Below, piece by piece: positions 10,330 to 63,481 of a stretch of DNA of 64,000 nucleotides (positions are counted from its first letter, which is position 1; the number at the start of each line of letters is the position of its first letter). This DNA is from a virus, in IMG/VR virus record IMGVR_UViG_3300045988_152178; one strand, written 5' to 3'. The notes beneath the pieces were generated by a model. That model made no database searches. It saw nothing but the letters and a program-made list of their open reading frames with translations, and had not been told where the DNA came from. Made by a program: the position numbers and the translations under genes.

Positions 10330-10692
10330 ATGATGATACAAATTCAAAATTGGGAGTCATCCCAAAAGATTATTATCGTGGATGAAATCAACCATGGTAC
10401 CGTACAGGTGGAGATACCAAAGCCTGGACCATACAAGGATGAGTATTACCAGTATGCCGATTGCGCTATCTACAACCTTTGGGTAGATGAAAAATACCGC
10501 AAGCGGGGAACGGCTTGCCTCCTGATGGAGACCGCAGAGCGGGAAGCCAAGAAACTTGGCTGCAAATTAGTGCAACTGGAGTGGAACGATAAAGATACCG
10601 AGGTTTTCGTTCTCGAATGGTATAAACGCCTTGGCTATCATGTAAAGGCATTGAACGAAAACGATCGGCTGTTGCTGGTAAAGGAAATTTAA
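10330..10692 (+). CDS. GNAT-family N-acetyltransferase
   Basis: 120 aa; LWVDEKYRKRGTACLLMETAEREAKKLG (acetyl-CoA binding R-x-x-G-x-A motif) and EWYKRLGY. Confidence 0.65.
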   Translation: MMIQIQNWESSQKIIIVDEINHGTVQVEIPKPGPYKDEYYQYADCAIYNLWVDEKYRKRGTACLLMETAEREAKKLGCKLVQLEWNDKDTEVFVLEWYKRLGYHVKALNENDRLLLVKEI

Positions 10693-21900: not shown

Positions 21901-24900
21901 ACTTCAGAGTCCTATTTTTAAAGGTACTCTGCAAGGTGCTCTCTCAATGGTTATCACCTCCTGCAAGATATTCGTTACCCTTTTGCCGCTCATCATGAAT
22001 TATCTGGTTGGTCTGGGTATTTGGAAAGCGGCTGCATTTATGTGGGACTTCGGCAAGGCTATCTGGGCAGCAGCAAAGGCGCAGGCAGGCTTTAACACTG
22101 TTACGAAATTAAATCCATACGTAGCATTGGCAAGCGTTCTTGTTACGATTGTCGGTGTATTCTATTCTTATGCCAATGCCGCAAGCGAGGCAGCAGCAGC
22201 TGAAGCTGAGGCAAAGCGTAAGGCTGGCGAATGGAAGAATAAATTAGGCGAAGCTGAGAAGCAGACGGATGATTTGACCCGAAAACTGCATTCTTATAAG
22301 GTAGCTCTCGAAGCTGTCAATCTTTCGCAGAAAGACCGCAATACTCAGATTGCTCGATTTAACAAGGATTTCCGTCAGTACATTAACAAACTTGGTATTG
22401 AAATCAAGAGTGTGGATGATCTGCGTAAGCATTATAGTGCTCTTTCTTTGGAAATTCAGCGTGCCACTTACTACCGACTCCGTGAGGAGGCAAAGCAGGA
22501 CGCTCTTCCTGGTTATCAGAAAGACAGACTTGCTGCTGCTAACATGGTTAAGAAATATATCAGTGAGAACGATTTTAAGTATGGTGGTTTCACGGTAAAG
22601 GATATTATTCGATGGTTCCAAAAAGGTGCAGATGCTAATGCAGCATACTCTTACTTGATAAAAGGCTCCTTAAAAAATACTTATGTCAATGGAAAGCTGG
22701 GTGGAGCAAATAAGGATATTAAGTTCAATTTTAAAACGGGTGAATATTCTTATGACCGCAAAAATAAAAATGGAGCTACACGTGACAGTGATTACGAGTT
22801 GTTATCTCGTCTTCGTTATCTTTATAATGCAACAAATAGGGAGCAGAATAAAGAGGATGAAATTAACGATTATTTCAGTCCGTTCGTTCCGAAAGACTAT
22901 GTTCCTTGGGAAGAGGATACTCCTGGTACACTTGAAAATGATGCACCTGATAAAGATGCGATCAGTGCTGCGAAGCGGGAGGCACGTGAACATAAACAGG
23001 CATTGCGCGAGCAGCAGCGTTCCTGGCGTGATGAGTTGAAGCAGAAGCAGGACGAGGCAAGCGCTATCATGGATAACGTGCGCAACTTCTATGAGCGTCA
23101 GATTAATGAAAAGCTATCCCAGGCGGTAAGCCTCGGAAGGGATGAGACAGAGCAGAAATTCTACATAGAACCGATAAAGAGACGTATGAACGAAGCTCTT
23201 GCTCAAGTACGCCTTGCTATCGCTGGTCAGGCTAACACCTGGGAGGAGTTCAAGAAGACGATGGATAATGATCTTGTTGAGAAGACCGATGAGACTGGCG
23301 TGAATCTTTCTCAAAATCTCCTCGCTTCCATCCAAAAGAATAACGTCGATGCCCTGCGTGAGAAGATGGCTCAGTTGGGTAATAGTCTGAACCGCCCGAT
23401 GAACTCCATCACGTCTGAAATCTTTGCCAAGGCTACCAAGAATCAGCAGAATAATATAACGTTGGAGGCTCAACAGGCAGAAGCCCGACGGAAGATAGCC
23501 CGAGAGCACAACTATACGGGAGCTGTGCAGCAGAATATGTACGATGATTTCAATCAGATGGGCTTTGCCAATCCAACCGATTTTGAGTTGGCAGATGAAG
23601 AGTCTGCAGAAAGACGTAAGAAGCATATCATCGCCATGTATGAGCAGGCAAGAAAGCAAATCGCCAACCTTTATACAGTTGATGTCAATGATAAAAAGGG
23701 CAGGGGATTGCTGATGCAGATGCTCTTTGGCGATGATCCTTATGTACTGGGTGCCCGCGTTCAGAGCGTGCTGGGTGATAATGCGGAAGACTGGCGTGTG
23801 TTCTACAACAAGCTCATTCAGTATTCCGATGAATATACTGAGGCGCAGAAAAAGACCTACGACCAGGCAAAAAAGATTGCCGAGCAGATGTGGAAGGTCA
23901 ACCAGCGCAATCTTGCCAACCAGGAAGCCCTTCGCAAGATGCAGCAGGAAAGTGCGCTCTTTGGCAAGCGAACCAATATGTGGTCGAACCTCGGTCTCGG
24001 CGACCTTACCGCTGACCCAGAGGTGGAGCTGATGAAGATGAAGATGCAGATGGCAGAAGATTATTATGCTTTCGTTTTCAAAAACTCACGTAACAAGCAG
24101 CTCCTCGACGAAGCAGACAAGGCTCGGCAGGAGGCAGAACTTGCCTACGTCAACCAAATGGCAACGGCGATGAAGAACCGACTCTCGCAGATGCAGCAGC
24201 TCGTGCAGCCTATCGAAACCTTCGGTTCGGAAGTAGGCAAGGCATTTGCTGAAATGCGCAACGATGTAAGCAGCGCACAGGAGAGTATCAAGAACGCTCT
24301 GAAGTCTATGCTTGAGTCATGGGCTAATATGGCGCTCAACGACGTGAATACGCAGATGTGGAAGGCAATCAACGATGCAGGTGCCAAGCGAGCTAAGAAG
24401 AAAGCGCAGCCTGATATTGATAAAGCAAGAGCCAATGCTGATGCCAATGCCGTGAAGGAAGATTTCTCAAATCTCGGCACAAAGGCGAACCCGATGTACG
24501 TGCGACTGGTAGATGAGGGTGCAGCTTACCTTACTCCGCAGCCGCAGTCTAACTTTGAGAAGATGACTCTACAGCAGCCTTCTCTCGGTTGGAATCCTGA
24601 TGGTTCGCCTATCAATAACAGTCCGGCGATTGTGCCTCCTTATGCGCCTCCTGCTACTCCTGAGCAGCCGAATACGCAATCACAGGGCAGTGGTGCGCCT
24701 CGTGCATGGGAGCATCGCAACAGAGACAATGCTAATGCGTTCTACAATGATGCAGCAACACAAACTGGTGCAGCAGCCGCCGATGCTATCGCAGGTGGCG
24801 GTTCCTTCGCTGATGCCGCAGCCGGTATCACTGGTTCCTTCATCGGCGGTGTGATGAATACCGAGTTTAAGAAGGGTGGTAAATCCAAGGAAGACAAGGA

Positions 24901-25900
24901 GAAAGCCGACCAGTTGAAGAAGGAGAAGAAGCACCAAAAGGAACTGAGTAAAGAGGTCAAGAAGGGCAATAAGGATCGTGAGAAGGTTACCACGCAGGGT
25001 GTTCAAAACATCACGAATGTGACGGATGCCGGAAACAAGGAGCAGACCGAGGGCACAAAGATAGCTTTGAATACAGGCATGGCTATGACGGAAACGGCAC
25101 TCACTACCAACCTCGCCAATACTCAGGCTAACAATGAGGCAATCACCCAATCGGATGCAGCCCGCACGCAAGCGGGAATGACCTTCTCTATCGCTGGTGC
25201 CATCGGTAAGTGCTTCGACTTCCTGGGTCCTATCGCGGGTCCTATTGCAGCCGCAGGTGTGATGGCTACCCTCATGGGCTTGCTCCAGTGGGCACTCAAT
25301 TCTGCATTCAGCGGCAGCAAGAAGAAGAGTAATACCAATACTACCAACACCAAGCTTGTAACCGGTATGCTTACCTACGATTCCGGAAACGTTCAAGACT
25401 TGAAGCCATTTGTGGCTGATAATGGCGAGGTGTATTGGGCAAAGGAGGATGATGGCAAGCAGATGCAGGGCGTGAAGATGCTTACGTCTCCAACCGCCAC
25501 TACCGTGAACGGGCAGCCGTCTCTCGTAGCCGAGAGAGGACCAGAAATCGTGATTGGTAGGGAAACCACCCACGCCATGATGATGAATAATCCTGGCTTG
25601 CTGAAAGCCCTCGTAAACTACGATCGCAACTATTCCGGAAGAAACTCAGCAAGAAGGGCATTTGATAATGGCAATGTGGGTGATGTCCTTGCAGCAGGCA
25701 ATGGTAATCTTTCGTCTGGCGCGTCAGCGGCAGACGGACTATTAGCAGCCAATGCAGCAAGCAATGCGGCGCTCCTACAAGCCGTGAATGCGCTCATTCA
25801 GCGCCTGAATCAGCCTATCAACGCCAAGGTTAACATGTATGGTCGTGACGGACTGTATGACAGTCTGGATAAGGCTAACCAGTTTATGAAGAATAAATAG
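18971..25900 (+). CDS. tail tape measure protein
   Basis: 2309 aa; long coiled-coil N-terminus, TP901-type core (ELAYQGAKLGMGKYGVEGMAQFVKAADQINVAIGEEMGEEALPAL...), hydrophobic segments, Gly/Ala-rich C-terminal part. Confidence 0.85.
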   Translation: MAKNKTEAIITLNGQQPLQVLKQLQEAAAGISDQLDAAQAKLKTLKPNTDPYKALVATINDLKKQYDLLASAQIKDISANERLQSVVDQLSNTSLRQLRRALGDGKRQLEGLSEAELEQANSIRAMMKTVGDQIRLLEGKYVKIREGLASIGTQSDQWLSKAIAQQKDLMDYTRRGTKEYKEQEQVMQMLTAEQNKRNAAVSAEAAAKRQAQFKQQVASSRQMLSSTDTMKNHSQTEIQTAINTLKQAQGQSNIGGNEWKQYADEIAKAEERLASLAGKVKEVKQVMSEKDAKDTITFMDSHTEGEVREAINTLRLLQAQTHIGSEEWKKYAISIADAEESLAKLTGKAKEVKEELSLTETNERLKTLGEQSEQSLQDMLRVLQEAKVSMKPFSKEWEDLAAKIDSVKTRMADVASNSPFERNYDTAQKMARQDGLLDKEGSLRNPTKNDLEWSKSYLQKELGNTSPFETVKIAEIKEALGMLDERLSAFKDNADKSAMSAEKLNEVLSNMKTASLDDLKAASAELNKQLGKLAPSSDAAKQVKQQLQALDKEIKQVEDDVVDVNDVIARSKKGKASIEELKKAYQQLQAELNKINTGDEEFKNKQKALKDLKKEIDNVTGAAQKQGGAWHTALKNLTAYVGLFQAFNAIKDTVTSAIKKNFEYSSSLTDIRKVSGLTMQDVNKLSEELAKIDTRTSVDGLAELAYQGAKLGMGKYGVEGMAQFVKAADQINVAIGEEMGEEALPALSKMVETMGLIPKMGIEKAMLATGSAMFKLASTSTATSGNIVEFAKRLTGVSRTAGITTDQLLALGSASDSLFLMPEVSATAMSKFIVALQKNHNLIEKDLGIQQGTIKNMYAAGNAMDAIVLVLEKMRDKGNMNALGSIFKDLGSDGQRLVTAMVTMSKNVDVLKDHLYESQEAFEEATAVTSEYTMQQQSAAGILDRANNLWEKAFVNPDGVESVKAMAQAWYDMSQMILQSPIFKGTLQGALSMVITSCKIFVTLLPLIMNYLVGLGIWKAAAFMWDFGKAIWAAAKAQAGFNTVTKLNPYVALASVLVTIVGVFYSYANAASEAAAAEAEAKRKAGEWKNKLGEAEKQTDDLTRKLHSYKVALEAVNLSQKDRNTQIARFNKDFRQYINKLGIEIKSVDDLRKHYSALSLEIQRATYYRLREEAKQDALPGYQKDRLAAANMVKKYISENDFKYGGFTVKDIIRWFQKGADANAAYSYLIKGSLKNTYVNGKLGGANKDIKFNFKTGEYSYDRKNKNGATRDSDYELLSRLRYLYNATNREQNKEDEINDYFSPFVPKDYVPWEEDTPGTLENDAPDKDAISAAKREAREHKQALREQQRSWRDELKQKQDEASAIMDNVRNFYERQINEKLSQAVSLGRDETEQKFYIEPIKRRMNEALAQVRLAIAGQANTWEEFKKTMDNDLVEKTDETGVNLSQNLLASIQKNNVDALREKMAQLGNSLNRPMNSITSEIFAKATKNQQNNITLEAQQAEARRKIAREHNYTGAVQQNMYDDFNQMGFANPTDFELADEESAERRKKHIIAMYEQARKQIANLYTVDVNDKKGRGLLMQMLFGDDPYVLGARVQSVLGDNAEDWRVFYNKLIQYSDEYTEAQKKTYDQAKKIAEQMWKVNQRNLANQEALRKMQQESALFGKRTNMWSNLGLGDLTADPEVELMKMKMQMAEDYYAFVFKNSRNKQLLDEADKARQEAELAYVNQMATAMKNRLSQMQQLVQPIETFGSEVGKAFAEMRNDVSSAQESIKNALKSMLESWANMALNDVNTQMWKAINDAGAKRAKKKAQPDIDKARANADANAVKEDFSNLGTKANPMYVRLVDEGAAYLTPQPQSNFEKMTLQQPSLGWNPDGSPINNSPAIVPPYAPPATPEQPNTQSQGSGAPRAWEHRNRDNANAFYNDAATQTGAAAADAIAGGGSFADAAAGITGSFIGGVMNTEFKKGGKSKEDKEKADQLKKEKKHQKELSKEVKKGNKDREKVTTQGVQNITNVTDAGNKEQTEGTKIALNTGMAMTETALTTNLANTQANNEAITQSDAARTQAGMTFSIAGAIGKCFDFLGPIAGPIAAAGVMATLMGLLQWALNSAFSGSKKKSNTNTTNTKLVTGMLTYDSGNVQDLKPFVADNGEVYWAKEDDGKQMQGVKMLTSPTATTVNGQPSLVAERGPEIVIGRETTHAMMMNNPGLLKALVNYDRNYSGRNSARRAFDNGNVGDVLAAGNGNLSSGASAADGLLAANAASNAALLQAVNALIQRLNQPINAKVNMYGRDGLYDSLDKANQFMKNK

Positions 25901-37016: not shown

Positions 37017-37922
37017 ATGGAACTAAGACATTTACGTTCGTTCGCGTATGTGGCAGAGACGCTTTCTTTCAGTATCGCCGCCACCCGATGCTTTGTCACC
37101 CAATCTGCCATCAGTCAGCACATCAAGGCTCTGGAGGATGAACTGGGATGCAAGCTGCTGATACGCACATCGCACAGCATCATGCTCACCGAGAATGGGG
37201 AGGCACTTCTGCCACGTGCCAAGGAAATACTGAAGTTGACGGAAGACTGCAAGGAGCATATCAATGCAATCAACAACTGCATGACCGGAGAACTGCGCAT
37301 CGGTGTAGGTTCCTTTATCGCCCCCTATATCCGTGTGGCTGCACTTATATTCATGGAGCGATACCCTAACGTAAGAGTGAATGCCGAATTTACCAAGGCA
37401 ACGAGCCTGAACCGCCTGTTGCGAGACCACATGCTGGATCTTGCTTTTACGATGAACGAAGCCTATACCAACGAGGGTATCGAGAGCCAACCCTGCATCC
37501 CATTCAGTATTTGTGCTATTATGAGAAACACACACCCTCTTGCCAGGAAAGATAAGGTAATATACGATGACCTGCTGAAGCACGGCATCATCATGCCCGA
37601 TGTAGGCGAACGTATTTTCAACACCTTTCAGCAATACCTGCAGAACGATTTCGCCAAATTAAATGTAAAGTGTATCGTGAGCGATCCAAACGAAGACCTT
37701 GCCATCATAGAAGATACTCACCTGGTTACTTTTATGCCGAAGCTGTATCTGAAGAACCACCCTACCCTTATAGCTCGTCCTATCCAGTGCATAGGAGAAG
37801 AACTGATGAGCAATGCCCACTGGATGAAGGATGTACCTATGAAGCGTTCCGCACAACTCTTCCTCGACATTATCAGGGACGAAGCCATCCCGTATATCAA
37901 GGCTTTGGAAGAAACTATGTAG
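37017..37922 (+). CDS. LysR-family transcriptional regulator
   Basis: 301 aa; canonical N-terminal HTH MELRHLRSFAYVAETLSFSIAATRCFVTQSAISQHIKALEDELGCKLLIRT and LTTR-sized substrate-binding part; TATTTTTG -7-like box at 36961-36968. Confidence 0.85.
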   Translation: MELRHLRSFAYVAETLSFSIAATRCFVTQSAISQHIKALEDELGCKLLIRTSHSIMLTENGEALLPRAKEILKLTEDCKEHINAINNCMTGELRIGVGSFIAPYIRVAALIFMERYPNVRVNAEFTKATSLNRLLRDHMLDLAFTMNEAYTNEGIESQPCIPFSICAIMRNTHPLARKDKVIYDDLLKHGIIMPDVGERIFNTFQQYLQNDFAKLNVKCIVSDPNEDLAIIEDTHLVTFMPKLYLKNHPTLIARPIQCIGEELMSNAHWMKDVPMKRSAQLFLDIIRDEAIPYIKALEETM

Positions 37923-41524: not shown

Positions 41525-42625
41525 ATGAATGAACAGATAAACCTCACCATCCCCCGCGGCTGGAACCAATGCACTCCCTCCCAGTTGGAAGCCCTCGCTG
41601 CCATCATGCAGGAGCAGATAGCCAAGGTGGACCGCTACCATCCTTTCGATATGCAGAAGGTGAAGATAGCCGTCTTTTTCCTCTTTGCCGGGATAAGCAT
41701 CAATGCCTATCCCGACCCTCGCGACCCCATCAATGAGCAGCACTACTTGGTAAGCATAGAGCCGCAGAAGAAGCGCTTCCTGAAGAAGCTCCTCTCCCTC
41801 TGCACCCCCGTTCCCAGCGATTCCATCGCTGGTCCCCAGTCGGCTAGCAACTTTCCCCTCTATCTTTGGCAGATCAACTATTGGCTCTCCCCGAAAGCCA
41901 AGACCAACGATAAGACCGCCCCTGAGTACATCGCTCAGGGCGCAGGTCTTCTCGATTGGCTGGATGCAGATAGTGGCAATTTCCTCACCCGTTTCCCCTA
42001 TCCATCTATCCGGCAGAAATCCAAGTGGTATCGTCGTGCAAAAACCTTCCAAGGTCCGCACCCCGATCTCGATGGTTTCTCTTGGCAGCAGTACCGTTTT
42101 GCCAGCGACATGATGCAGACCTACACCAAGTTAAGCAACAACCTGGTAAAGATGAAGAAGATGGATAAATTCACCGAGGAACAACTCCAGACGCAAGCCC
42201 AGAGTGTAGCCAGTGCAAGAAACATGTTCCTTGCCACCATCTTCAACACCACCACCCAGTACGTCGATCCGACAACAGGCATCACGAAATACGATTTTCA
42301 CTACGAGTCGAAGCAGTTCACCGAGAACGCAGGTTATTTCGTCAAATACCCGGAAACCAATTGGCAGGTCATCCTCTTCTGGTGGAGCGGCATCATGCAC
42401 ACCCTAGCCCATCGCTACCCTCACGTGTTTAAGGTGCAGAAGTTAAGCAAAAGCAAGCCGCAAACCCCGATGGAAATCTACACCGCCACCACCGCCACGA
42501 TGCAGAAGTATGCCGGTCTAACGGAAGATCAGGTCAACACCCAATCCTATTCCCTCGTTCTCGAACACCTAGAAAGGTTGTCGAAAGAGAATGAGGAAAT
42601 GGAAAAGATGAGGAGAGGGAAATGA
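41525..42625 (+). CDS. hypothetical protein carrying an in-frame hairpin repeat copy
   Basis: 366 aa continuous ORF, ATG start; residues LSLCTPVPSDSIAGPQ are encoded by repeat copy 6. Confidence 0.6.
   Translation: MNEQINLTIPRGWNQCTPSQLEALAAIMQEQIAKVDRYHPFDMQKVKIAVFFLFAGISINAYPDPRDPINEQHYLVSIEPQKKRFLKKLLSLCTPVPSDSIAGPQSASNFPLYLWQINYWLSPKAKTNDKTAPEYIAQGAGLLDWLDADSGNFLTRFPYPSIRQKSKWYRRAKTFQGPHPDLDGFSWQQYRFASDMMQTYTKLSNNLVKMKKMDKFTEEQLQTQAQSVASARNMFLATIFNTTTQYVDPTTGITKYDFHYESKQFTENAGYFVKYPETNWQVILFWWSGIMHTLAHRYPHVFKVQKLSKSKPQTPMEIYTATTATMQKYAGLTEDQVNTQSYSLVLEHLERLSKENEEMEKMRRGK
41805..41834 (+). repeat. hairpin repeat copy 6 (inside CDS)
   Basis: CCCCCGTTCCCAGCGATTCCATCGCTGGTC with the usual CTCCCTCTGCA upstream extension. 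Confidence 0.85.
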
Positions 42626-42646: not shown

Positions 42647-43675
42647 ATGAATATAGGTTTAATAGATGTAGATGGGCATCATAAAAAGAAAAAAATCGGC
42701 GCTACGGTTTACCCTAATCTCGCGTTAGGTAAACTAGCACGCTGGCATATAATGCAGGGCGATAATGTAGAGTGGGCGCAACCTATAAATCTTTTCGATC
42801 ATCAGCATTATGATATACTTTATGCTAGCAAGGTGTTCAATTTTTCGCCTGATGTTGATTTCTCTCAGTATTCCTACGATAAGTTGGTAAAAGGTGGAAC
42901 TGGATATGACATATATAGCAGTTTGCCGACCGAGGTAGATAGCCTGCAACCTTATTATGAGCTTTTTCCCGATATACCCAAGAATACGGCTTATGGCTTC
43001 CTTACAAGAGGCTGCCCTAACAAGTGTTCCTGGTGTGTGGTTCCTAAAAAAGAAGGTGTCATCCGTCCTTATATGGATATAGAAGAAATCGCCATCGATG
43101 GTAAGGATCATGTGGTATTGATGGATAATAACATTCTTGCTGCAGGAGATTATGCGAGGCTGCAGCTTCAGAAGATTATAGACCTTGGTTTGCGTATAGA
43201 TTTTAATCAGGCGATGGATGCACGATTAGTAACCCCTGAGTTTGCTTCCTTGTTGGGTAAGGTGAAGTGGATAAATAATCGCATCCGTTTCGGTTGTGAT
43301 ACTACACCACAGATAAAATCCTGCGAGCGGGCCATGCAGATGATAAATGATGCTGGCTTCAAGGGCGAATATTTCCTGTATACGATGGTAGGCGGTAAAA
43401 ACGATTTTAAAGAATGTTATAACCGCATTCATTATTGGTGGCAGCGGTTGCAAGACTTCCGTCGCGACCATATCGGCAGGGCAGTTTATGCTTATGCGCA
43501 GCCATATAGAGACCCCATGAACCCCAACAATGCAATACCGCAGTGGCAAAAGGACTTGGCGAGATGGTGCAACAAGCGAATGTTGTTCTGCAAGGTGGAT
43601 TTTAAAGATTTTTCTCCGAGAAAGAACTTCACGTGCCAGGAGTATCTTTTGAAGCTAAAAAAGCAGCAAGGATAA
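42647..43675 (+). CDS. radical SAM protein with N-terminal B12-binding-like region
   Basis: 342 aa; FLTRGCPNKCSWCVVPKKEG gives CxxxCxxC at Cys123/127/130. Confidence 0.75.
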   Translation: MNIGLIDVDGHHKKKKIGATVYPNLALGKLARWHIMQGDNVEWAQPINLFDHQHYDILYASKVFNFSPDVDFSQYSYDKLVKGGTGYDIYSSLPTEVDSLQPYYELFPDIPKNTAYGFLTRGCPNKCSWCVVPKKEGVIRPYMDIEEIAIDGKDHVVLMDNNILAAGDYARLQLQKIIDLGLRIDFNQAMDARLVTPEFASLLGKVKWINNRIRFGCDTTPQIKSCERAMQMINDAGFKGEYFLYTMVGGKNDFKECYNRIHYWWQRLQDFRRDHIGRAVYAYAQPYRDPMNPNNAIPQWQKDLARWCNKRMLFCKVDFKDFSPRKNFTCQEYLLKLKKQQG

Positions 43676-48142: not shown

Positions 48143-48796
48143 ATGGCAAAGAATAAAGAAACCACAGAACAGCGCACGCAGCGTTTCAAGACCCTTTGCG
48201 TCAATATCCTCGCCCAGAGTGGCAACTGCCAGGAATCGCAGCATGCCTTCAAGAGCACGCAAAGCATTCCCGATATGTGCGAGGCATGGCGAAAGTATTG
48301 GCACGGCTTAATCACCGAGGTACCGCAGCAGGTAATCGATGCTTTCAGGGCAGTATATCCGGAGTTTAAGGCAGATATTAACCAGGGCGGCATTTTCTAT
48401 AATGAAGACTCGCCTACTGGTACCGTCCTCGTAGGCGATACAGACGAGGAAATCCATCTCTATTCCTCCCGAAAGATATACGTCTTAGGCAAGGCACACG
48501 TCATCCTCCATAATGCCGCTACCGCCCTCGTAATGAATGAAGGCTGCAAGGTAGAGCTATTGGATGGCAGCAAGGCAACCATCAAGGCAGGTTACGGCAT
48601 CGCCCGAAATTATGCCCACCTGGTAACATGCAACGAGGCTGAAAGCTACGACCAGAGTGTAGTCTTCATCACAGATGGCACCCTTCACGACCATGGGCAT
48701 CAGAAAATCAATGCCTTTGGTACGGCACTCATCGACACCTTCACCCGTCGCCTCATAGACTTATACGATAACGCAAAAATAGAAATCAGAATATGA
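48143..48796 (+). CDS. hypothetical virion protein
   Basis: 217 aa; ATGGCAAAG start; ATGA overlap with next gene. Confidence 0.6.
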   Translation: MAKNKETTEQRTQRFKTLCVNILAQSGNCQESQHAFKSTQSIPDMCEAWRKYWHGLITEVPQQVIDAFRAVYPEFKADINQGGIFYNEDSPTGTVLVGDTDEEIHLYSSRKIYVLGKAHVILHNAATALVMNEGCKVELLDGSKATIKAGYGIARNYAHLVTCNEAESYDQSVVFITDGTLHDHGHQKINAFGTALIDTFTRRLIDLYDNAKIEIRI

Positions 48797-51699
48797 ACTC
48801 ACATCTCTCTATATTAATCAATGATAAGCCGGTGGCACTCCCCGATGATTTCTCCATCGACATAGAGGATCAGAACCCCGTATTCAACGATACGGAAATG
48901 TTCTCCTATCCTTTCTCTATTCCGCTGGACGGCAACCGATGGCTGGTAAAGAACATCGAAGATATTCATGCCGCCATGAAAGCCGTGAATATGGAGCACC
49001 TGCCTACTCGCATTCATGCCGACGGACTGCCTTTCCGTAGCGGTACATTGGTCATGCAGGACGATGAGGAAATAACCGACTCACTCAGCATGAACATCGA
49101 TGCCAGCACCCAGAGCTTCAGCGAGCTTATCAGCGACCTGCAATGCCGTGATATTCCGGTAAAGGACCAGCTTATCATCGGCGAGAAAATTGGTAATGTG
49201 AGGGTGGATATTTGGAGTAACCCGGTAGTAAAAGTCAACCTCCATTCCGATGGTAAGAAAGGTGGAAAGAATACCACCGCCACCGTTACGACCGACCCAT
49301 TGAGAGCTAGTAAGGTGCTGGAACCCCAGGCACTCGGTTTCTCCTATCCCGCAAGCTGCAAGGAATATACCTCTACTGATACGGCACACTATATCGGCGA
49401 TGCCTACAACAAGAGTAAGAAATCTTATTCTTCTGGTGCGATAACAATCAATGTACCGCAAGAGACTGCCAACGGCAACTATATTAATACCTCGGCAGCC
49501 TATGACGAGACGGATGGCGCTGGCAGACCTGCTACCTACTGCAATGCCCGAATCTGTTACAAGCATCATGCCCTGGATGATGAAGGGAATACATCGAGTG
49601 ACCTCATCAAAATGGATAAGTGCTCATGGACGAATGAAGACCTCTATCCTTACTGGGTGTTGGATGCCAAACGTCCGCAATCGGGCATCTGCTTCTATGT
49701 ACTCTATTTCCTCGACTGCCTCTTTGCCTATTTGGGTGTCACCTTCGATAAACGTGCCCTGCTGGAAATTGAGGATTTGAAACATCTCTGTTTCTTTACT
49801 ACTGTCTGCGGTTATGATTCTCTCGAACACCCCCATCACGGCGATTATTACGAAGCAAAGGAAATTCAGGATGCCAAGGACATCATCAACAAGGATGGCT
49901 ACGTAAAAGGCAGCAATCCCGAAATGGAAATCGTGGCTGCTAAATCCGTAGGCGAAATCAAGACGGGCTTCTTTAAGGATCAGAAGCATATCAATTCCTG
50001 GTTGGAGAGCCGTGGCTGCGGCGGTCAGATTGAAATCACCAAGGCAGAAGATAAGGACGTGCAGGAACTCGACCTTACGCTGACTGAAAACGGTGTGGCT
50101 ACCACCCGCCATATCCAGGTGGGCGAGGTAGTTGCTTTTCCTCCTGGCAAGGGAATGAAAGTAACAGGTATCACCATCGAATCGAATATCAAGAAGTTTG
50201 AGGTGCAGGCAAACGTGCTCTATATGGTTGCCAACAGCGAGAATTTCCCTGACGAGAGCGTGAGCACTGTCATCTCTTCTCTAGAAAACGCATTCGGTAT
50301 CAAGTTCTCCTACGATTACGAGCAGAAGAAGGTAACGGCTTATCTCACTCGCGACGTGATGCGAAAGAGCGGCAGAAAGACAAGGGATTTCCACTGCGAA
50401 ATCCATTCGATGATTCCGGTGACCGAGAAGATTACCGGTGTGCGTATGCGCTACTCTGCCGAAGCTGATGCCAAGGAACAGAAGAGTTATATGCGAAACG
50501 CCAAGGGCGAATATCTCGATTCCAGTTACGATACCGATTATAACTATATCGACTACCCTCTACCTGATGGCGAATCCAGCAAGATGGGTAGAACCGTCAC
50601 CGATATGAAGTACATTGAGTTCTTCCATAACATCCATAACCCTAGTGATAAGAACTGCTACATCGACCGTAACACCGGTAATGCCTATCGTGTAAAGGTC
50701 AACAAGGAGGCAAAGACTTCCAACGAGTTAAAGCCAGTACTCTTTGAGGTAGGTCAGTTCAAGGGTGTGGAATATGGAGATTGCAGTGAGGAGAACGAAG
50801 ATTTTATTCACGATATTAGTATTGACTTTACGCCTGTACCTTTCAACGATGTGAATTACTTTAAGGAAGTAAAAGCTGCCTATGGTACCCATACCGCTGA
50901 TGTGACTGACTTTGAAGGCAAGCCTTTGCTAAAAAGTGTAGTGCAGATTACAGAGGCTCAACAACCTATCCTCTGCGCTTATGTAGATGAGGATATGGAG
51001 CATGAGTTTGTATTGCAGGAGATTAACCAGGTTATCTCTTCTTCTTTCTGTGATTTCTACATGAAACAGAAGTTAAAGCTCGTGGAAAGCTACGACCCTT
51101 CGGGCACGGATGATGGCAACTCACCCTTGCAGGATAAGTCACGATGGGGCTTTGCCGTGGCATTAATGCGTGGTGGCGGTAGTGATGCCACCCTGCAACC
51201 CTACGATTATAACTACGACCATTTCGGCACATCCAAATGGCGAACCAATGCCGGACAGTATGCCTTGGCTTGCGATTCACTGGATATGATGGGCAATGTG
51301 TTTGATTATAATGGTGTGCAGGAAGGTGTAGGCACCGGCGAACGTTTCTCGCTGAAGATACGAGCCTTTAAGGAACCATCGTGGCTGAAAGATCCGAAGT
51401 ATAAGGATTTGGTACTCTGCAATGCCGATGAAGTAGATAAAAACGGCAAGGTAGTGACTAAAATCCGCTCCCGTGGTCTATTCGATACCTTCATTCTCCC
51501 ATACGCCTACTTCCTTCTGAATAGGAAGAAGTTTATGGTAAGATGCACCACCACCGTAGCGCAAGTGGCAGATATACCCAATCACTGGCAGGATTGGTGG
51601 AATATAGGCGGTATGAAATGCCTCATTGACAAGGTGAATACCACCATCGATGCTAAGACGGGCATGGGCGAAGTAGAGTTAACGGTGTATGCCCTCTAA
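48793..51699 (+). CDS. large baseplate / distal tail protein (probable)
   Basis: 968 aa, translationally coupled to upstream gene, precedes fibre genes; no motif recognised. Confidence 0.6.
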   Translation: MNSHLSILINDKPVALPDDFSIDIEDQNPVFNDTEMFSYPFSIPLDGNRWLVKNIEDIHAAMKAVNMEHLPTRIHADGLPFRSGTLVMQDDEEITDSLSMNIDASTQSFSELISDLQCRDIPVKDQLIIGEKIGNVRVDIWSNPVVKVNLHSDGKKGGKNTTATVTTDPLRASKVLEPQALGFSYPASCKEYTSTDTAHYIGDAYNKSKKSYSSGAITINVPQETANGNYINTSAAYDETDGAGRPATYCNARICYKHHALDDEGNTSSDLIKMDKCSWTNEDLYPYWVLDAKRPQSGICFYVLYFLDCLFAYLGVTFDKRALLEIEDLKHLCFFTTVCGYDSLEHPHHGDYYEAKEIQDAKDIINKDGYVKGSNPEMEIVAAKSVGEIKTGFFKDQKHINSWLESRGCGGQIEITKAEDKDVQELDLTLTENGVATTRHIQVGEVVAFPPGKGMKVTGITIESNIKKFEVQANVLYMVANSENFPDESVSTVISSLENAFGIKFSYDYEQKKVTAYLTRDVMRKSGRKTRDFHCEIHSMIPVTEKITGVRMRYSAEADAKEQKSYMRNAKGEYLDSSYDTDYNYIDYPLPDGESSKMGRTVTDMKYIEFFHNIHNPSDKNCYIDRNTGNAYRVKVNKEAKTSNELKPVLFEVGQFKGVEYGDCSEENEDFIHDISIDFTPVPFNDVNYFKEVKAAYGTHTADVTDFEGKPLLKSVVQITEAQQPILCAYVDEDMEHEFVLQEINQVISSSFCDFYMKQKLKLVESYDPSGTDDGNSPLQDKSRWGFAVALMRGGGSDATLQPYDYNYDHFGTSKWRTNAGQYALACDSLDMMGNVFDYNGVQEGVGTGERFSLKIRAFKEPSWLKDPKYKDLVLCNADEVDKNGKVVTKIRSRGLFDTFILPYAYFLLNRKKFMVRCTTTVAQVADIPNHWQDWWNIGGMKCLIDKVNTTIDAKTGMGEVELTVYAL

Positions 51700-51709
51700 C
51701 TCCCTCTCG

Positions 51710-51739
51710 CCCCCGTTCCCAGCGATTCTATCGCTGGTC
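51710..51739 (+). repeat. hairpin repeat copy 8
   Basis: CCCCCGTTCCCAGCGATTCTATCGCTGGTC, 10 nt after stop. Confidence 0.85.
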
Positions 51740-51771: not shown

Positions 51772-52980
51772 ATGAATAAAGAAATTTTGATTACCGGAAC
51801 CGGTATTCATTCTGCCCTAGGCAGAAGTACCAGAGAAGTAGCCATGAACCTTTATAAGGGTAAATGCGGATTACATCACGACGAATGCCGTGATAAATAC
51901 AATTCCGATTTATGCGGCAATGTGCCTGTCTGGATAGAAGAATATAACGAAATTCTCACTCGTGCGCAGAGAGCATGCCTTCCCCTTCATGGCTTTTATG
52001 TACTCGATGCAGTATTTGAAGCCTTAAAGAAAGCCAAGGTAAGTAAGGATTTTCTCGAAAATCATAACGTGTCTATTATCGTAAGTAATGATTCTGAATG
52101 CTACGAAAGTCGGTCGGTGGTGCATCATATAGGTCAGGAAGTACATAACAGAACATTGTCTGTAGAAACATTGTTTCGCTCGCTCAATTCTACTATCAGC
52201 ATGAACCTTGCATCTATCCTTCATATTCATGGCTTATCACTTACCGTGAGCGCAGCCTGTGCAGGAGGTGGCCACGCCATCGGACTTGCCAAGATGTTGC
52301 TCGATAGCAAGCAGACGGAAATGGTAATTGTGATTGGCGCGCAGGAATGCGGATCTCAATATTGCATGGAAGCTTTTGATGCCCTCGGTGTTTTCTCACC
52401 CGATAACGTACAGCCGTTCGGCAAAGGCAGAAATGGACTGGCACCATCGGGTGGCGCAGCCTGCATCATTCTCGAACCATCGGATAGTCTTCGTCTGAAA
52501 GAAGAGAAGGTGCATTCCTTCGCTTCTCTTTCCGGTTATGGCTTCTCTACCAATGGAAAAGCTGTCACTACCCCTGATAGCTATCAGGAAGAAGTATCTA
52601 TGCTGAATGCTATCGAGAACGCTGGTCTGGACGAAGGTATGATAGACGTAGTACTTGCTCATGCTACCGGTACCCCGATGGGCGATGAAGCCGAGGCAAA
52701 GGCAATAGAGAGAATTTTCCCTATCTGTCCGAACGTAGTGGCAACAAAGGGCATGACAGGTCACGAATGTTGGATGGCAGGTGTATCGCAAGCCGTACAA
52801 GCCGTAATCATGTTCACTTATGGCCGTCTGTTCCATGCAGCCACCACCGAGGAGAACGCCTTCCCGAAACTTAACCTGGTGATGCGCCCTAAGTATTACG
52901 ATCCTCATCATATCCTCTGTAATGCCTTCGGCTTTGGGGGTACAAACTCATCATTTGTCATTTCAAAAGTAAAAAAGTAA
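51772..52980 (+). CDS. beta-ketoacyl-ACP synthase, KAS I/II (FabB/FabF-like)
   Basis: 402 aa; TVSAACAGGGHA (Cys163), VLAHATGTPMGDEAE (His297), ATKGMTGHECWMAG (Lys326, His331), NAFGFGGTNSS. Confidence 0.85.
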   Translation: MNKEILITGTGIHSALGRSTREVAMNLYKGKCGLHHDECRDKYNSDLCGNVPVWIEEYNEILTRAQRACLPLHGFYVLDAVFEALKKAKVSKDFLENHNVSIIVSNDSECYESRSVVHHIGQEVHNRTLSVETLFRSLNSTISMNLASILHIHGLSLTVSAACAGGGHAIGLAKMLLDSKQTEMVIVIGAQECGSQYCMEAFDALGVFSPDNVQPFGKGRNGLAPSGGAACIILEPSDSLRLKEEKVHSFASLSGYGFSTNGKAVTTPDSYQEEVSMLNAIENAGLDEGMIDVVLAHATGTPMGDEAEAKAIERIFPICPNVVATKGMTGHECWMAGVSQAVQAVIMFTYGRLFHAATTEENAFPKLNLVMRPKYYDPHHILCNAFGFGGTNSSFVISKVKK

Positions 52981-52998
52981 AAAGGTAAAAAAGGTAAC
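52965..52998 (+). repeat. A-rich GTAAAAA octamer motif cluster
   Basis: AAAAGTAAAAAAGTAAAAAGGTAAAAAAGGTAAC spanning the KS stop and the leader of the ACP gene. Confidence 0.6.
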
Positions 52999-53250
52999 AT
53001 GAAAAAAGAAAAAATAAGCTCTCGCATTATCACCATCGTGAACAGCCTGAAAACATCGTGGGTAAAACACGAAGTAACCCTTGCCTCTAATCTCCGTGAC
53101 GAGGTAGGGCTGGAATCTATTGATTTCCTCGATATGATCCAGCAGGTGGAAATGATGTTCCACATCAAGATTACCCCGGAAGAGGCGAAAGATTGCAAGC
53201 TCGTTTCCGATGTAGTGAATCTCGTAATTTTAAAAGTGGTAAAAAGGTGA
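52999..53250 (+). CDS. acyl carrier protein
   Basis: 83 aa; LRDEVGLESIDFLDMIQQVEMMF with Ser40 in the position of the phosphopantetheine-attachment DS(L/I)D motif. Confidence 0.75.
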   Translation: MKKEKISSRIITIVNSLKTSWVKHEVTLASNLRDEVGLESIDFLDMIQQVEMMFHIKITPEEAKDCKLVSDVVNLVILKVVKR

Positions 53251-53262: not shown

Positions 53263-54324
53263 ATGGCACAGAAAATCAATCTCACATCGGGTTCCGTCTT
53301 TGCCGGAAACCCGATAACCTTTACCATCACCCCCTCCGTGGCTACGAATCCATCCTTCCATCGGGTCATCGTGGAAGTGCATTTCGATGATGGTACGGGC
53401 AGTTACGAAACCAATAAGCTCACCATCCCCGTTACTACCGAGGGAAGAGATGTATCGCTCGATATATCCTCTGCTCTCCGCATTACGCTGGATAGCTACA
53501 AGTATACCGCTACTCCATCCACCTACCCCGTGGTAAGCTGGTACATTAAAGCCTACGATGAGTATATGGATAATAACGGCGAGGTGCATACCAATACGGG
53601 CGAAGTCTATTATCCTGCCGATGGCTCGAAGAATAAAGGTGAAACCAACCTCCGCTGTATAGCCGGAGCCTTTAGCGATATAGAGCGCCTGAAGTCGGGC
53701 GTAACTAAGGCTGTCACCCTTCTCTCCTGCAAGCCGACAGCTACCTACGAAATAGCCGTTGTAGGCGAGAGCTTTGTTTACCCGGTATCATATAGCGCAG
53801 GTCAGAACCTAGCCACCAGCAGCTCATTGACCGCCCCTGCATCCGAGGAACAGGCAATCACGAAAGAAGGTGCGCAGAGCATTCATGGACACCTTGTCTA
53901 TGCCCTACCCTCTTCTGAAGCTGAAGACCGAACCACCTTCCGCTTCATTAACCGCTTCGGTTGTCTGGAGAGCATCAGTGTTCCGAAATCCTATTCTCAG
54001 AAGTTGAACGTAACAACTACAGAGTATACGGAAGCAGTACAGGAAACCTTCAATGAGTTCTCACGCTCGGCTATAGATAAGCAGAACGACAAAGAAGGCT
54101 GGCTTTACCAAAGCGACCCTTTAACCGAAAAATGGCTGCGATGGTATTATCACGAGTTCCTGATGAGCAAGCATGTATGGTTAAAGGTAAACGACATCTG
54201 GCTCCCTTGTACTATCGCCCTGAATGATGAGATCACTATCAAGGATAAAACCAACAAGGTTATGCACTCAGTTTCCTTTACCGCAAAGCTCGGTATCAAT
54301 GGCAACCCTTTCACTTCCATCTAA
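53263..54324 (+). CDS. hypothetical tail / baseplate-associated protein
   Basis: 353 aa, ATATGGCACAG start, beta-rich composition. Confidence 0.6.
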   Translation: MAQKINLTSGSVFAGNPITFTITPSVATNPSFHRVIVEVHFDDGTGSYETNKLTIPVTTEGRDVSLDISSALRITLDSYKYTATPSTYPVVSWYIKAYDEYMDNNGEVHTNTGEVYYPADGSKNKGETNLRCIAGAFSDIERLKSGVTKAVTLLSCKPTATYEIAVVGESFVYPVSYSAGQNLATSSSLTAPASEEQAITKEGAQSIHGHLVYALPSSEAEDRTTFRFINRFGCLESISVPKSYSQKLNVTTTEYTEAVQETFNEFSRSAIDKQNDKEGWLYQSDPLTEKWLRWYYHEFLMSKHVWLKVNDIWLPCTIALNDEITIKDKTNKVMHSVSFTAKLGINGNPFTSI

Positions 54325-54353
54325 CCCCCCGCGAGCTGCGTATCTCCCTCTCG

Positions 54354-54383
54354 CCTCCGTACCCAGCGATTCTATCGCTGGGT
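54354..54383 (+). repeat. hairpin repeat copy 9
   Basis: CCTCCGTACCCAGCGATTCTATCGCTGGGT; stem extended to 10 bp by paired changes on both arms; 5 nt before P6. Confidence 0.85.
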
Positions 54384-54388
54384 TCTTT

Positions 54389-54425
54389 TTTGTCCCCACT
54401 AAAAAAGCGAAAACCTTTATCTTTG
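54389..54425 (+). promoter_or_regulatory. phage promoter-like motif P6
   Basis: TTTGTCCCCA-N19-TATCTTTG, 27 nt upstream of ATG 54453. Confidence 0.5.
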
Positions 54426-56614: not shown

Positions 56615-57658
56615 ATGGCAAAAGTATTGGCTAATGGTCAGATTACTATCGTTGACCTCAATGACGGCAAGGCCGTGCAGTGTTTCACACAATGCTCTAA
56701 GGGCGAGACTCAGATTTACACCCCCGACACGGGTGTGTACACTCCGAACTACTCGTCGAGTGAGCCAAACGTGATAACAGCCCGCGTATATGTGACGGGC
56801 AGTGCTACAGACCAGGCTCCGACCGCAGCCTGCAGCGGATGGTTGTGGAAGGTAGATGGTGTGGTAGCTACGCCCGTGAGTGGCAAGTCGTATCAGTTGA
56901 ACCTCGCTAACAACATCGACAAGAACGGCAGCGTGAAGAACATTGAGTGGTCGTGTAAATACACCGACCCTGAGACTAAGGCTACGACTACGTGTATTGG
57001 CTACAAGACCATTTCGCTGGCGAAGAGCGGCGGTGCGCTCCAGACGGTGCAGATAGAGACTCCCGACGGCAACACGTTCGACTCGACCAACAACAGCAAG
57101 ACGCTGCGTGCCGTGGCGAAGTTCTTCCGTGGCAACGTGCAGGACACTTCTCTGACTTCTATGACTTGGGAGGTGCTGAATATCAGTGCAGGAACCTGGA
57201 GCGCTGTGGCATCGGGCAACGTGAGCACTTCGGGCGGCGTGAGCACTCTGAATGTGAGTGCCAATGACGTGCTTAACTTCCAGACGTTCCGCTGTACGGT
57301 GAAGGACGGTACTGATTTTGCAAGTGCCATCATCACGTTCTTCGATGCGAGCGACCCGTATGTAGTGGAGGTGTACTCGCTGACGGGCGACAAGATCGTG
57401 AACGGTGCCCAGTCGACCGAGCTTTTCGCTCGTGTGTGGAAGGACGGCAAGGTGGTAGAGGATGGTGCTGCGGTAAAGGCTGACAGCAGCCATGCTTCAA
57501 GCTTCACGTACAAGTGGACAAAGTACAATGCGAGCGGTGTGGCTACCAACTGGAACGGTACGTCAAGTGCGGTAAACGCTTCGACCAAGCCTTACGTCAC
57601 GGTGGCTGCCACTGACGTGAGCGGCAGAGGTACATTTACTTGTGAGGTGTCAAAATAA
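56615..57658 (+). CDS. tail fibre-associated protein made of three Ig-like repeats
   Basis: 347 aa; N-terminal MAKVLANGQITIVDLNDGK; three ~100-aa units each ending in a F/Y-x-C-x-V type strand (WSCKY, FRCTV, FTCEV). Confidence 0.6.
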   Translation: MAKVLANGQITIVDLNDGKAVQCFTQCSKGETQIYTPDTGVYTPNYSSSEPNVITARVYVTGSATDQAPTAACSGWLWKVDGVVATPVSGKSYQLNLANNIDKNGSVKNIEWSCKYTDPETKATTTCIGYKTISLAKSGGALQTVQIETPDGNTFDSTNNSKTLRAVAKFFRGNVQDTSLTSMTWEVLNISAGTWSAVASGNVSTSGGVSTLNVSANDVLNFQTFRCTVKDGTDFASAIITFFDASDPYVVEVYSLTGDKIVNGAQSTELFARVWKDGKVVEDGAAVKADSSHASSFTYKWTKYNASGVATNWNGTSSAVNASTKPYVTVAATDVSGRGTFTCEVSK

Positions 57659-62118: not shown

Positions 62119-62964
62119 CTATTGGTATGCTTCATCTCTGTTCTTTCTCCATATAGATGAAAGATACCCGTTTTCGCAGCTATACAGTTTGATGAGCGAA
62201 CCGTAGAGGTTCATATAATAGAATGTAGCCACATGATCCTTTACCAGATAACCATTGATCGTAACCTTTCCGTTCCTGGTGGTATAGGTAGTAGTGAAAT
62301 CCTCATTACCCTCTATCACCATGCGCATGGTGCCGTCCTCATTAAACGTCATGGATCCCATACGCTGTTCCTTCTTTCCGTCCTTGGTAATGGTAATGAC
62401 GCAATACCAGGTACCCCTCAGCGCAGCGTCGTGGTCCGTCTCATCGGATATATCATTCAGCGAACTGCCGCATCTCATCTGGCATTCATTGCCGTTGGCG
62501 AAGGTACCCACAATCATTGGGCGCATATCGATGCTCACCGATACCCTGCTACCCGTAAGCTTGTTGCTCTCCTGCAGATGCACGCCCGAGATAGTCTCAT
62601 TCAGCAGATTGCCGATATTGAAGCCTTTCGGAGTGCCCACCTCGAAGTGGGTAGTAAGCTTGTCGCCCTCCATCTGCCAGTAACCGAAGGCAGTGTTAGG
62701 CTCGATAACATAACCGCCTGGAGTCAGATCGCCACCATCCTCATAATAAACCATGTGGTTCTTGTAATAAGAATAAGTACTGTTGGTGCTGTTGATGGTC
62801 CATTCGTTGCCGGTAAGATATTCTTTCACCTTTGCCGCATTCTTCTCGCTCTCATCCTCGCTGCTGCTGCAAGCCGTGAGCGCTGCCGTAATCATTCCCA
62901 TGGCCACCATTGTGAAGACGGCCATCATGGAATGTTTCATCATAGCTAAAAAGTTCTGTTTCAT
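62119..62964 (-). CDS. lipoprotein, probably surface exposed
   Basis: 281 aa; signal peptide with lipobox AALTAC followed by SSSEDESE (acidic post-Cys stretch as in the Bacteroidetes lipoprotein export signal). Confidence 0.75.
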   Translation of the reverse strand: MKQNFLAMMKHSMMAVFTMVAMGMITAALTACSSSEDESEKNAAKVKEYLTGNEWTINSTNSTYSYYKNHMVYYEDGGDLTPGGYVIEPNTAFGYWQMEGDKLTTHFEVGTPKGFNIGNLLNETISGVHLQESNKLTGSRVSVSIDMRPMIVGTFANGNECQMRCGSSLNDISDETDHDAALRGTWYCVITITKDGKKEQRMGSMTFNEDGTMRMVIEGNEDFTTTYTTRNGKVTINGYLVKDHVATFYYMNLYGSLIKLYSCENGYLSSIWRKNRDEAYQ

Positions 62965-63005: not shown

Positions 63006-63410
63006 TTAATTATCTAATAGTACCACTCCCACCCTTACTTTCTTGCCGCAGTGAGGGCAGAAGGTGGAAGTCTGAATCATCTGCTGCTGCTGGTTTTCTG
63101 ATACCAGTCCGTTTTCGTGAACCGGATAGGCTGGCTCATTTTCTGCTACATCCTCGTTTTCTTTCTTGTCAGCATTCGAGAAAAGATCATCCTTTTCGTT
63201 TGTCGGGAAGAACATATCACGAGGGTCTATATCCAAAGCCATAGCTATGCGATAGATAGTGTTTGTCGTTAATGACTTGTTGCGGAGGAACTGCGACATT
63301 GATTGCGATGACATGCCGCATTTCTCAGCGAACGCATTGGTACCCAAACCTAACTTTTGCATCAGTTTGCGAAGATTGATTTCCGATTTTGGCTTAATAT
63401 TTTCTTTCAT
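63006..63410 (-). CDS. XRE-family HTH regulator (repressor-like) with C-terminal CxxC
   Basis: Start taken at MKENIKPKS (ATG 63410), because the track start 63452 lies within the -7 box (63450-63457). HTH LRKLMQKLGLGTNAFAEKCGMSSQSMSQFLRN; ends FCPHCGKKVRVG. Confidence 0.75.
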   Translation of the reverse strand: MKENIKPKSEINLRKLMQKLGLGTNAFAEKCGMSSQSMSQFLRNKSLTTNTIYRIAMALDIDPRDMFFPTNEKDDLFSNADKKENEDVAENEPAYPVHENGLVSENQQQQMIQTSTFCPHCGKKVRVGVVLLDN

Positions 63411-63449
63411 AATTTCTTTATTTATATATATGTTCTTTAAATTTCGGTG

Positions 63450-63481
63450 CAAAGGTAATATGTTTATTTGGTTTTTGCAAA
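63450..63481 (-). promoter_or_regulatory. canonical Bacteroides-type promoter
   Basis: Minus strand reads TTTG-N20-TACCTTTG (TTTG at 63478-63481, -7 box at 63450-63457), 39 nt upstream of ATG 63410. Confidence 0.55.

Follow-up and report, generated by a model that had tools for sequence, protein, structure and literature searches.

We examined a stretch of viral DNA of 64,000 nucleotides (IMG/VR record IMGVR_UViG_3300045988_152178; the whole stretch is hereafter called the window), in which a stand-alone beta-ketoacyl synthase (KS) of 402 amino acids (aa) is followed by a dedicated acyl carrier protein (ACP) of 83 aa. The two were confirmed to be a real phage gene pair and not an assembly artifact. 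As judged from its sequence, this KS is an intact condensing enzyme of the elongating Cys-His-His type (thiolase superfamily, KAS I/II), and complete ketosynthases are rare in genuine phage genomes. On balance, KS and ACP probably constitute an accessory, late-expressed, host-dependent two-gene condensing module of ~100-kb gut phages, a family that is abundant in human-gut metagenomes.

Occurrence of the pair across phage lineages

Public metagenomes contain over 120 clusters of the KS protein at an identity of 90% or higher, many of them on contigs of 100-107 kb, and the KS-ACP pair is carried by more than 60 independent viral contigs of ~100 kb from different studies. A scan of IMG/VR returned 62 loci with KS and ACP. 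Every IMG/VR locus covering the region has the order portal (g605)-g387-g371-g217-g968-KS-ACP-g353-fiber, even in lineages with a KS just 59-64% identical, and an identical gene order was found in four independent ENA assemblies. The catalytic triad of the KS, its Lys326, and Ser40 of the ACP are unchanged across 64 aligned phage genomes. Pairwise Nei-Gojobori dN/dS values of KS and ACP were 0.12 and 0.15. For the portal and its virion neighbors the range was 0.06-0.10, with 0.06-0.07 for the portal, g217, and g968; g353 gave 0.14. Both KS and ACP are thus kept by strong purifying selection.

The initial annotation of this DNA had named two ways in which the pair might be misleading, namely a chimeric assembly with host DNA and a recent host capture, and both checks were negative. 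A chimera is excluded by the recurrence of the same junctions, flanked left and right by phage genes, on over 60 independent contigs, and no cellular protein is more than 41% identical to the KS. The sole point that favors an artifact, be it a chimera or a very recently captured host fabF, is that such genes are normally found in cells. It is opposed by the junctions shared by independent contigs of different studies, the joint divergence of the pair with the phage to ~60% identity, the phage genes that flank it, and the low cellular identity, so that we regard such an artifact as extremely improbable. One KS copy (P0019) was traced to a 105-kb phage contig and had no host flank. None of the PADLOC-DB models was matched by KS, ACP, or six other window proteins, both flanking genes included.

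The phages that carry the pair form a family of ~100-kb gut phages with a siphovirus-like look and, probably, Bacteroidota hosts. INPHARED gave no DNA match to the window; the putative capsid protein gave no tblastn match, and the portal gave distant hits only, among them genes annotated as portal in Polaribacter phage Leef_1 and in a Microcystis phage. This portal was missed by both Pfam and PHROGs, and the window contains no tRNAs. Downstream of the pair, an open reading frame (ORF) of 347 aa matched phrog_3267 'tail protein' (8.8e-61) and one of 711 aa matched tail-fiber PHROGs. With the portal upstream and tail and fiber matches downstream, the KS-ACP region is the late virion module, and the placement of the pair in a genuine late/structural phage region, made in the initial annotation, was borne out by the portal, tail, and fiber genes around it.

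A sister lineage of ~50 viral contigs of 85-106 kb (L474-L523) has homologues of g387, g371 (66-67%), g217, g968 (42-49%), g353 (45-50%), and the fiber N-terminus, and it lacks KS and ACP. In these contigs g968 is joined straight to g353, which starts 12-40 nt downstream of the g968 stop codon. Neither KS nor ACP was found in ~100 loci from sister-lineage phages, and both KS pattern scans of the viral collection, whose motif FGFGGTN is invariant in the phage KS, returned no sister contig. Since the sisters join g968 to g353, the pair and its upstream spacer represent an insertion/deletion of ~1.55 kb between core structural genes. The g353 gene is not part of the cassette. The sister-lineage genome is rearranged, with LysR, lysin, and head genes at different relative positions.

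In a deep phage clade (~100-kb contigs, L152-L160 and L150; KS 36-43% identical), the ACP gene precedes the KS gene with a 16-nt overlap. There the two genes lie downstream of a homologue of a giant protein, directly or with one gene between, and upstream of primase and ThyX genes. The giant protein of the window (2309 aa, 18971-25900, plus strand) has weak matches to tape-measure PHROGs, and its identity to the deep-clade homologues is 31-38%. A further KS followed by an ACP, with the KS 33% identical, was seen on a viral contig of 160 kb (L214), with which the representatives P0258 and P0312 cluster.

A functional tie to the tail fibers, as the initial annotation had considered, did not hold up, since the deep clade has the pair beside replication genes and the KS-less sisters keep homologous structural genes. 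From this comparison of gene content, the tie of the pair to the tail module is weak, and its position beside the fibers is largely an accident of the insertion site and not a sign of functional coupling. KS and ACP are dispensable for virion construction and form an accessory module inside a bona fide phage genome. Within the family this module was seemingly passed on by descent, with changes of place and, in some lineages, loss. The KS-less sisters are natural 'knock-outs' for the cassette. Together with the KS-plus and relocated lineages they provide natural controls, which makes the role of acyl-carrier chemistry for the phage testable by comparison.

Active-site residues and bacterial relatives

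Both Pfam domains of the KS scored above the gathering score of 20.8 (ketoacyl-synt N, 87.1 bits, E 1.9e-24; ketoacyl-synt C, 66 bits, E 3.9e-18). In a phmmer search of the PDB, the KS aligned over its full length with FabB enzymes (top match 4xox, E 1.2e-37), and its C163, H297, K326, and H331 were in register with C163, H298, K328, and H333 of FabB. The Thr-x-Thr/Gly-Asp segment and the C-terminal FGFGGTN (Phe gate) also fell on catalytic positions in this alignment. The ORF, its length, and the Cys163 codon (52258-52260) were exactly as first annotated, and the assignment to the Cys-His-His elongating type agreed with the profile search and with the catalytic register of FabB. The fold was taken from the full-length alignment with PDB sequences; an AF2 model made from a shallow alignment (sequences at least 90% identical) had a pLDDT of 33, too low for use. 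No PHROG family matched the KS. In public records it is called 'hypothetical protein [Bacteriophage sp.]' in one case and '3-oxoacyl-ACP synthase-1' in another.

The KS is neither a FabF nor a FabB equivalog, because its scores fall under the NCBIfam cut-offs (TIGR03150 fabF, 161.6 versus 493.75; NF005935 FabB, 161.4 versus 630). By BLAST, its identity is 39-41% with the KS of flexirubin clusters and 36-43% with the phage KS of the deep clade, against 28% with E. coli FabB and 24% with FabF. The label 'FabF-like' of the initial annotation is therefore imprecise, and the enzyme is better placed on the FabB/ApeR side, nearest to the flexirubin-cluster KS. In a neighbor-joining (NJ) tree with 100 bootstraps, the KS of the window clade grouped at 100%, those of the deep phage clade at 98%, and the two clades together at 87%. 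The phage KS branched next to those of flexirubin clusters, within the FabB side of the tree and at a distance from both FabF and the elongation KS and chain-length factor (CLF) of aryl-polyene (APE) systems.

The ACP starts 18 nt downstream of the KS and has its predicted phosphopantetheine-attachment residue, Ser40 (codon 53116-53118), within the motif LESID. The ORF, the gap, and the codon all agreed exactly with the first annotation. The protein reached 29.2 bits with the PP-binding model of Pfam, above the same gathering score, and matched phrog_5934 'acyl carrier protein' (8.4e-08). In phmmer alignments with PDB entries, Ser40 is in register with the D-S-L serine at the start of helix II of solved ACPs. 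With a net charge of +1, the window ACP is the least acidic of its clade, across which the pI ranges from 4.38 to 7.88, and it does not show the acidity typical of type II carriers. The median net charge was -4 for the ACPs of the clade versus -11 for those of bacterial flexirubin clusters. A non-acidic ACP hints at a private KS-ACP partnership instead of free exchange with the type II fatty acid synthase (FAS II) of the host.

When one genome per bacterial species was scanned, no cellular relative of the KS exceeded 41% identity, nor did an exhaustive HMMER search across 1.84 billion representatives bring up a nearer cellular protein. The best 80 bacterial loci were all from Bacteroidota (Flavobacterium, Chryseobacterium, and metagenome-assembled genomes (MAGs) of Bacteroidales), with KS identities of 38-41%, and all are of the flexirubin type, with the gene arrangement TAL-(x)-KR-KS-ACP-LpxL-like acyltransferase. 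Tyrosine ammonia-lyase (TAL), ketoreductase (KR), ACP, and an LpxL-like acyltransferase each surrounded the KS in 77-80 of these 80 loci. The Flavobacterium homologue lies within a flexirubin cluster of the order FlxA (TAL), x, FlxB (KR), KS, ACP, LpxL-like acyltransferase and, further along, DarB, FabZ-like, and DarH. The ACP beside the flexirubin KS is 32-37% identical to the phage ACP.

Initiation in aryl-polyene systems is the task of ApeR, the KS encoded after the KR, and elongation that of ApeO:ApeC (PMC8253772). From gene order and this literature we infer that the bacterial relatives of the phage KS correspond to ApeR. The phage KS and ACP appear to have been acquired long ago from an aryl-polyene/flexirubin-type KS-ACP pair of Bacteroidota, and the sequences point to one ancient acquisition as the likely course.

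The annotated phage collection contained no close relative, the best hit being a fecal fragment of bacterial look at 37%. Most of the KS matches in that collection are unannotated, unverified, or non-phage records, and the two closest records examined look cellular: one is L001 and the other a prophage record with E. coli fabB in it. L001, filed under MT837464.1 as 'Bacteriophage sp.', is a human-fecal contig with a FabG-like reductase of the short-chain dehydrogenase/reductase type, a flexirubin-type KS, and several lipoprotein-like signal proteins. One of its proteins, with a KOW-like C-terminus, was read by eye as a candidate UpxY/NusG-like antiterminator. L001 is probably a Bacteroidales fragment misfiled as phage.

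Dependence on the host and possible roles of the module

The search for partner enzymes with Pfam covered the immediate neighbors of the pair, 52 further ORFs of the window and, for the rest of the genome, 40 ORFs (~34 kb) of the related contig IMGVR_UViG_3300045988_158849, tiled with L389 and L340. In this ~104-kb genome, we found no phosphopantetheinyl transferase (PPTase), malonyl transferase (FabD), KR, dehydratase (DH), enoyl reductase, thioesterase, or ACP-dependent acyltransferase, either in the window or in the remainder of the relative. The partners known from APE clusters (TAL or an adenylating starter enzyme, KR, DH, KS/CLF, LpxL-like acyltransferase, DarA/B) were equally absent from the window and the ~34 kb of the relative, so the phage pair is not a member of an APE cluster. 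The statement of the initial annotation that no partner from fatty acid or polyketide synthesis can be recognized holds at Pfam sensitivity, for the window and beyond it. With no other such enzyme encoded, the pair must rely on enzymes of the host.

The genome does encode a small GNAT, two radical-SAM-like proteins, ThyX, methylases, a ParA-like ATPase, a beta-clamp, and a LysR-type regulator. Several genes were considered as partners and rejected. The ORF at 41525-42625 adjoins the KS in some deep-clade loci; it had no Pfam or PDB hit and is kept in KS-less sisters. The radical-SAM gene at 42647-43675 is present in only a few of the KS-bearing relatives and also in KS-less phages, and the GNAT (10330-10692), a candidate for acyl transfer, is found in the KS-less clade as well. 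The LysR-type regulator, considered as a co-varying sensor, is conserved irrespective of KS presence.

In the reading that we favor, the PPTase of the host would convert the phage apo-ACP into holo-ACP, and malonyl units would come from host FabD or from self-loading. An acyl or aryl starter would be loaded onto Cys163 of the KS, where His297, His331, and Lys326 would drive a decarboxylative Claisen condensation that leaves a beta-ketoacyl thioester on the phage ACP. Reduction, dehydration, and hand-off of the product would all be left to host enzymes. The net effect would be that acyl and malonyl flux of the host is diverted late in infection into a phage-specific acyl-ACP pool, whose most plausible use would be in making an envelope lipid or a small molecule. 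A conditional benefit would explain why the module is accessory.

Several points weigh against this reading. The non-acidic ACP of the window may impede docking to host FabD, AcpS, or FabG. The absence of partner enzymes was judged at the sensitivity of Pfam in a genome where many phage ORFs have no annotation. The joint grouping of the two phage KS clades comes from an NJ tree at 87%, and by BLAST the window KS is equally close to the flexirubin and to the deep-clade KS, which would also fit two separate acquisitions.

A more specific version, to which we give a low probability, is a minimal phage polyketide or lipid synthesis that would begin with an unusual starter, aryl or short-acyl, primed by the KS on the phage ACP. 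It would yield either a phage-specific envelope lipid that remodels the Bacteroidota outer membrane (OM) late in infection or an acyl-ACP that serves as an assembly cofactor, structural or allosteric, like mitochondrial ACP on LYR-motif proteins. Either version, if true, would be a virus-encoded acyl-carrier chemistry without a described counterpart in tailed phages.

Because the nearest relatives of KS and ACP are exactly the pair that in bacteria is followed by an LpxL-like acyltransferase, the phage proteins might replace or compete with the ApeR-like initiation module of a host aryl-polyene/flexirubin-like OM lipid pathway. A surface lipid would thereby change in the infected cell, and the benefit could be, for instance, exclusion of superinfecting phages, altered envelope properties, or preparation for lysis. 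APE products are anchored in the outer membrane (PMC8253772), and homologous clusters occur in Bacteroidales MAGs and on a human-fecal contig (L100, L134, L135, L145, L001). The identity of ~40%, however, speaks of an old split, the phage has no acyltransferase at the level of Pfam, and late co-transcription speaks against lysogenic conversion, so that we consider this interference unlikely. It is similarly unlikely that over-produced KS and ACP act by sequestering malonyl-ACP, FabD, or AcpS or by unbalancing elongation in the FAS II of the host, which would halt membrane-lipid synthesis late and perhaps aid lysis. The late operon context and the lack of partner enzymes would suit such a takeover, and over-production of a KS is toxic to FAS II in E. 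coli. Yet the full catalytic set and the ACP serine are strictly conserved, which suggests selection for real product formation; moreover, a non-acidic ACP would be a poor competitor for host enzymes, and the KS belongs to a lineage of specialized secondary metabolism and not to a housekeeping one.

The location of the pair between structural genes, just upstream of the fibers in all ~60 genomes of the window clade, and its apparent co-transcription with late genes would fit the synthesis of an acyl chain for a tail-fiber or other virion protein. The sisters have homologous g968, g353, and fiber N-termini but neither KS nor ACP, the ACP-KS genes of the deep clade stand beside replication genes, and no protein acyltransferase was found, the GNAT being shared with KS-less phages. 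We consider such acylation distinctly unlikely, and virion decoration is the least likely of the three roles that the initial annotation had proposed, the others being a late takeover of host lipid synthesis and a carrier-protein-dependent modification system. A diffusible acyl or ketide signal, sensed by the LysR-type regulator of the phage, is very unlikely. This regulator has a ligand-binding domain and belongs to the core genes, with 94-97% identity throughout the clade; however, it is equally conserved in the KS-less sisters (74-79%) and so does not co-vary with the pair, and no release enzyme is encoded.

The favored reading, a host-dependent condensing module, has parallels in known systems. 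NodE and NodF of rhizobia are a two-gene unit of a KS and a dedicated ACP that borrows FAS II for a special acyl chain, alike in principle, except that the NodFE products go to a dedicated acyltransferase, NodA, encoded nearby, in a bacterial and symbiosis-specific setting. ApeR with ApeE-F of the aryl-polyene systems is likewise a specialized KS and ACP that borrows housekeeping FAS II enzymes. The ApeR-like KS and ACP of Bacteroidota flexirubin/APE clusters share with the phage pair the KS-then-ACP order, the MTGHECW and FGFGGTN motifs, and 38-41% identity over the full length; unlike the phage, those clusters hold TAL, KR, DH, CLF/KS, the LpxL-like acyltransferase, and DarA/B, and the divergence is deep. 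Housekeeping FabB/FabF and AcpP have in common with the phage proteins the thiolase-superfamily KS with Cys-His-His, Lys, and Phe gate and the carrier serine, but the phage KS is only 28% and 24% identical to these enzymes and below the equivalog cut-offs, and the window ACP is non-acidic.

Phage-encoded ACPs are listed among auxiliary metabolic genes, and ACP modules have been noted in Flavobacterium jumbo phages, with their function left unexplained (PMC13573597). Unlike the other phage ACPs (PHROG 5934, jumbo phages), the ACP described here is paired with a complete KS and conserved across a phage family. The literature searched gave no description of a KS-ACP pair in these or any gut phages, in line with the initial annotation, which knew of no described role for such a pair in a phage tail module. 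Finding out what the pair does might bring to light a new means by which gut phages manipulate the lipids or surface chemistry of Bacteroidota.

Flanking genes, hairpin repeats, and other genes of the window

The features around the pair are collected in Table 1.

Table 1. Positions in the window of the KS-ACP pair, neighboring genes, the regulator, and the repeats
Feature	Position	Strand	Basis or remark
Stand-alone beta-ketoacyl synthase (KS), 402 aa	51772..52980	+	Pfam domains, PDB alignment, invariant catalytic residues
Dedicated acyl carrier protein (ACP), 83 aa	52999..53250	+	PP-binding domain, invariant Ser40
g968, left flank of the insertion, 968-aa core virion-module protein	48793..51699	+	Kept beside g353 in KS-less sisters, 42-49% identity
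g353, right flank of the insertion, 353-aa beta-rich core structural protein	53263..54324	+	Directly 3' of g968 in the sister clade
Portal g605, 605 aa	43866-45683	+	Distant tblastn hits; four genes upstream of KS
LysR-type regulator (HTH_1 and LysR substrate-binding domain)	37017-37922	+	Among head and lysis genes
Intergenic repeat CTCCCTCTCGCCnCCGTnCCCAGCGATTCTATCGCTGG, between the g968 stop and KS	51700..51737	+	Hairpin 51719-51737, no T-run after it
Second repeat copy, 3' of the g353 stop	54344..54393	+	Hairpin 54361-54383 followed by TCTTTTTTGT, intrinsic-terminator look
19-nt perfect hairpins CCAGCGATTCyATCGCTGG	26601, 29813, 35950, 41490, 41814, 43708, 51719, 54363	+	8 copies

The protein encoded by g968 had no match in Pfam, PHROGs, or the PDB, so the description 'baseplate-like' given to it in the initial annotation is unverified. 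For g353, an AF2 model (pLDDT 64) gave weak matches to Ig/FN3 and tail-tube/Dit-like folds. The protein was considered as a hidden enzyme; with no sequence hits and just these weak fold matches, it was treated as structural. In the deep-clade locus L150, g353 follows the portal gene.

The hairpin repeat CCAGCGATTCTATCGCTGG is found at 51719-51737 and at 54363-54381. The hairpin CCAGCGATnnnATCGCTGG occurs in eight copies in the window, all on the plus strand, versus 0.02 expected by chance, and no copy lies over a reported promoter- or terminator-like site except the terminator-like one after g353. Three of the hairpin copies (43689, 51700, 54344) share a longer 5' arm. Among 61 related loci, a hairpin was found upstream of KS in 4, after g353 in 19, and between KS and ACP in 10, and the exact motif was not in the five sister-clade loci checked. 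Since their positions differ between close relatives and the motif is absent from these sister loci, the hairpins behave like a mobile intergenic repeat of the REP/MITE kind, as far as their distribution indicates. As cassette boundaries they were ruled out by their varying positions among the 61 relatives. The idea of a discrete KS-ACP-353-aa cassette bracketed by hairpins, which the initial annotation had put forward, fails on this variation and on the ~50 sister contigs that join g968 to g353. The hairpin before KS, without a T-run, and the terminator-like copy after g353 fit read-through from g968 and late co-transcription.

The LysR-type regulator is among the most conserved genes of the family: within the clade its identity is 94-97%, and lineages that are divergent or lack the KS still show 74-82%. 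Phages do not usually have a ligand-sensing regulator among their core genes. Of the two radical-SAM-like genes, that at 3288-4286 (plus strand) has a CxxxCxxC motif near the N-terminus and is conserved into the deep clade. The other (42647-43675, plus strand) belongs to phrog_9298 and is present in only a few close relatives, a DNA methylase being found at that position instead.

Outside the window, the genome of the relative (L389, L340) encodes the ParA-like ATPase, the DNA polymerase III beta-clamp, an Rv2179c-like exonuclease, and an N6 methylase; neither an integrase nor a terminase was recognized there by Pfam. The ParA-like gene may point to a lifestyle like that of a plasmid or to a carrier state. 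At its right end, the window has a small block on the minus strand, made up of a conserved protein with a lipoprotein-type signal (…LTAC SSS…) and a Cro/C1-type helix-turn-helix protein (62119-62964 and 63006-63452). In relatives, a plus-strand block starts just past it, which suggests a divergent early/regulatory region. Two ORFs of 144 and 140 aa (1347-1781 and 6456-6878, plus strand) are 66% identical and represent a duplicated early gene. The 347-aa tail protein (56615-57658, plus strand) is 92% identical to that of L049, L050, L052, and L055, in which the KS is 63% and the portal 74% identical, pointing to recent recombination of fiber modules across lineages.

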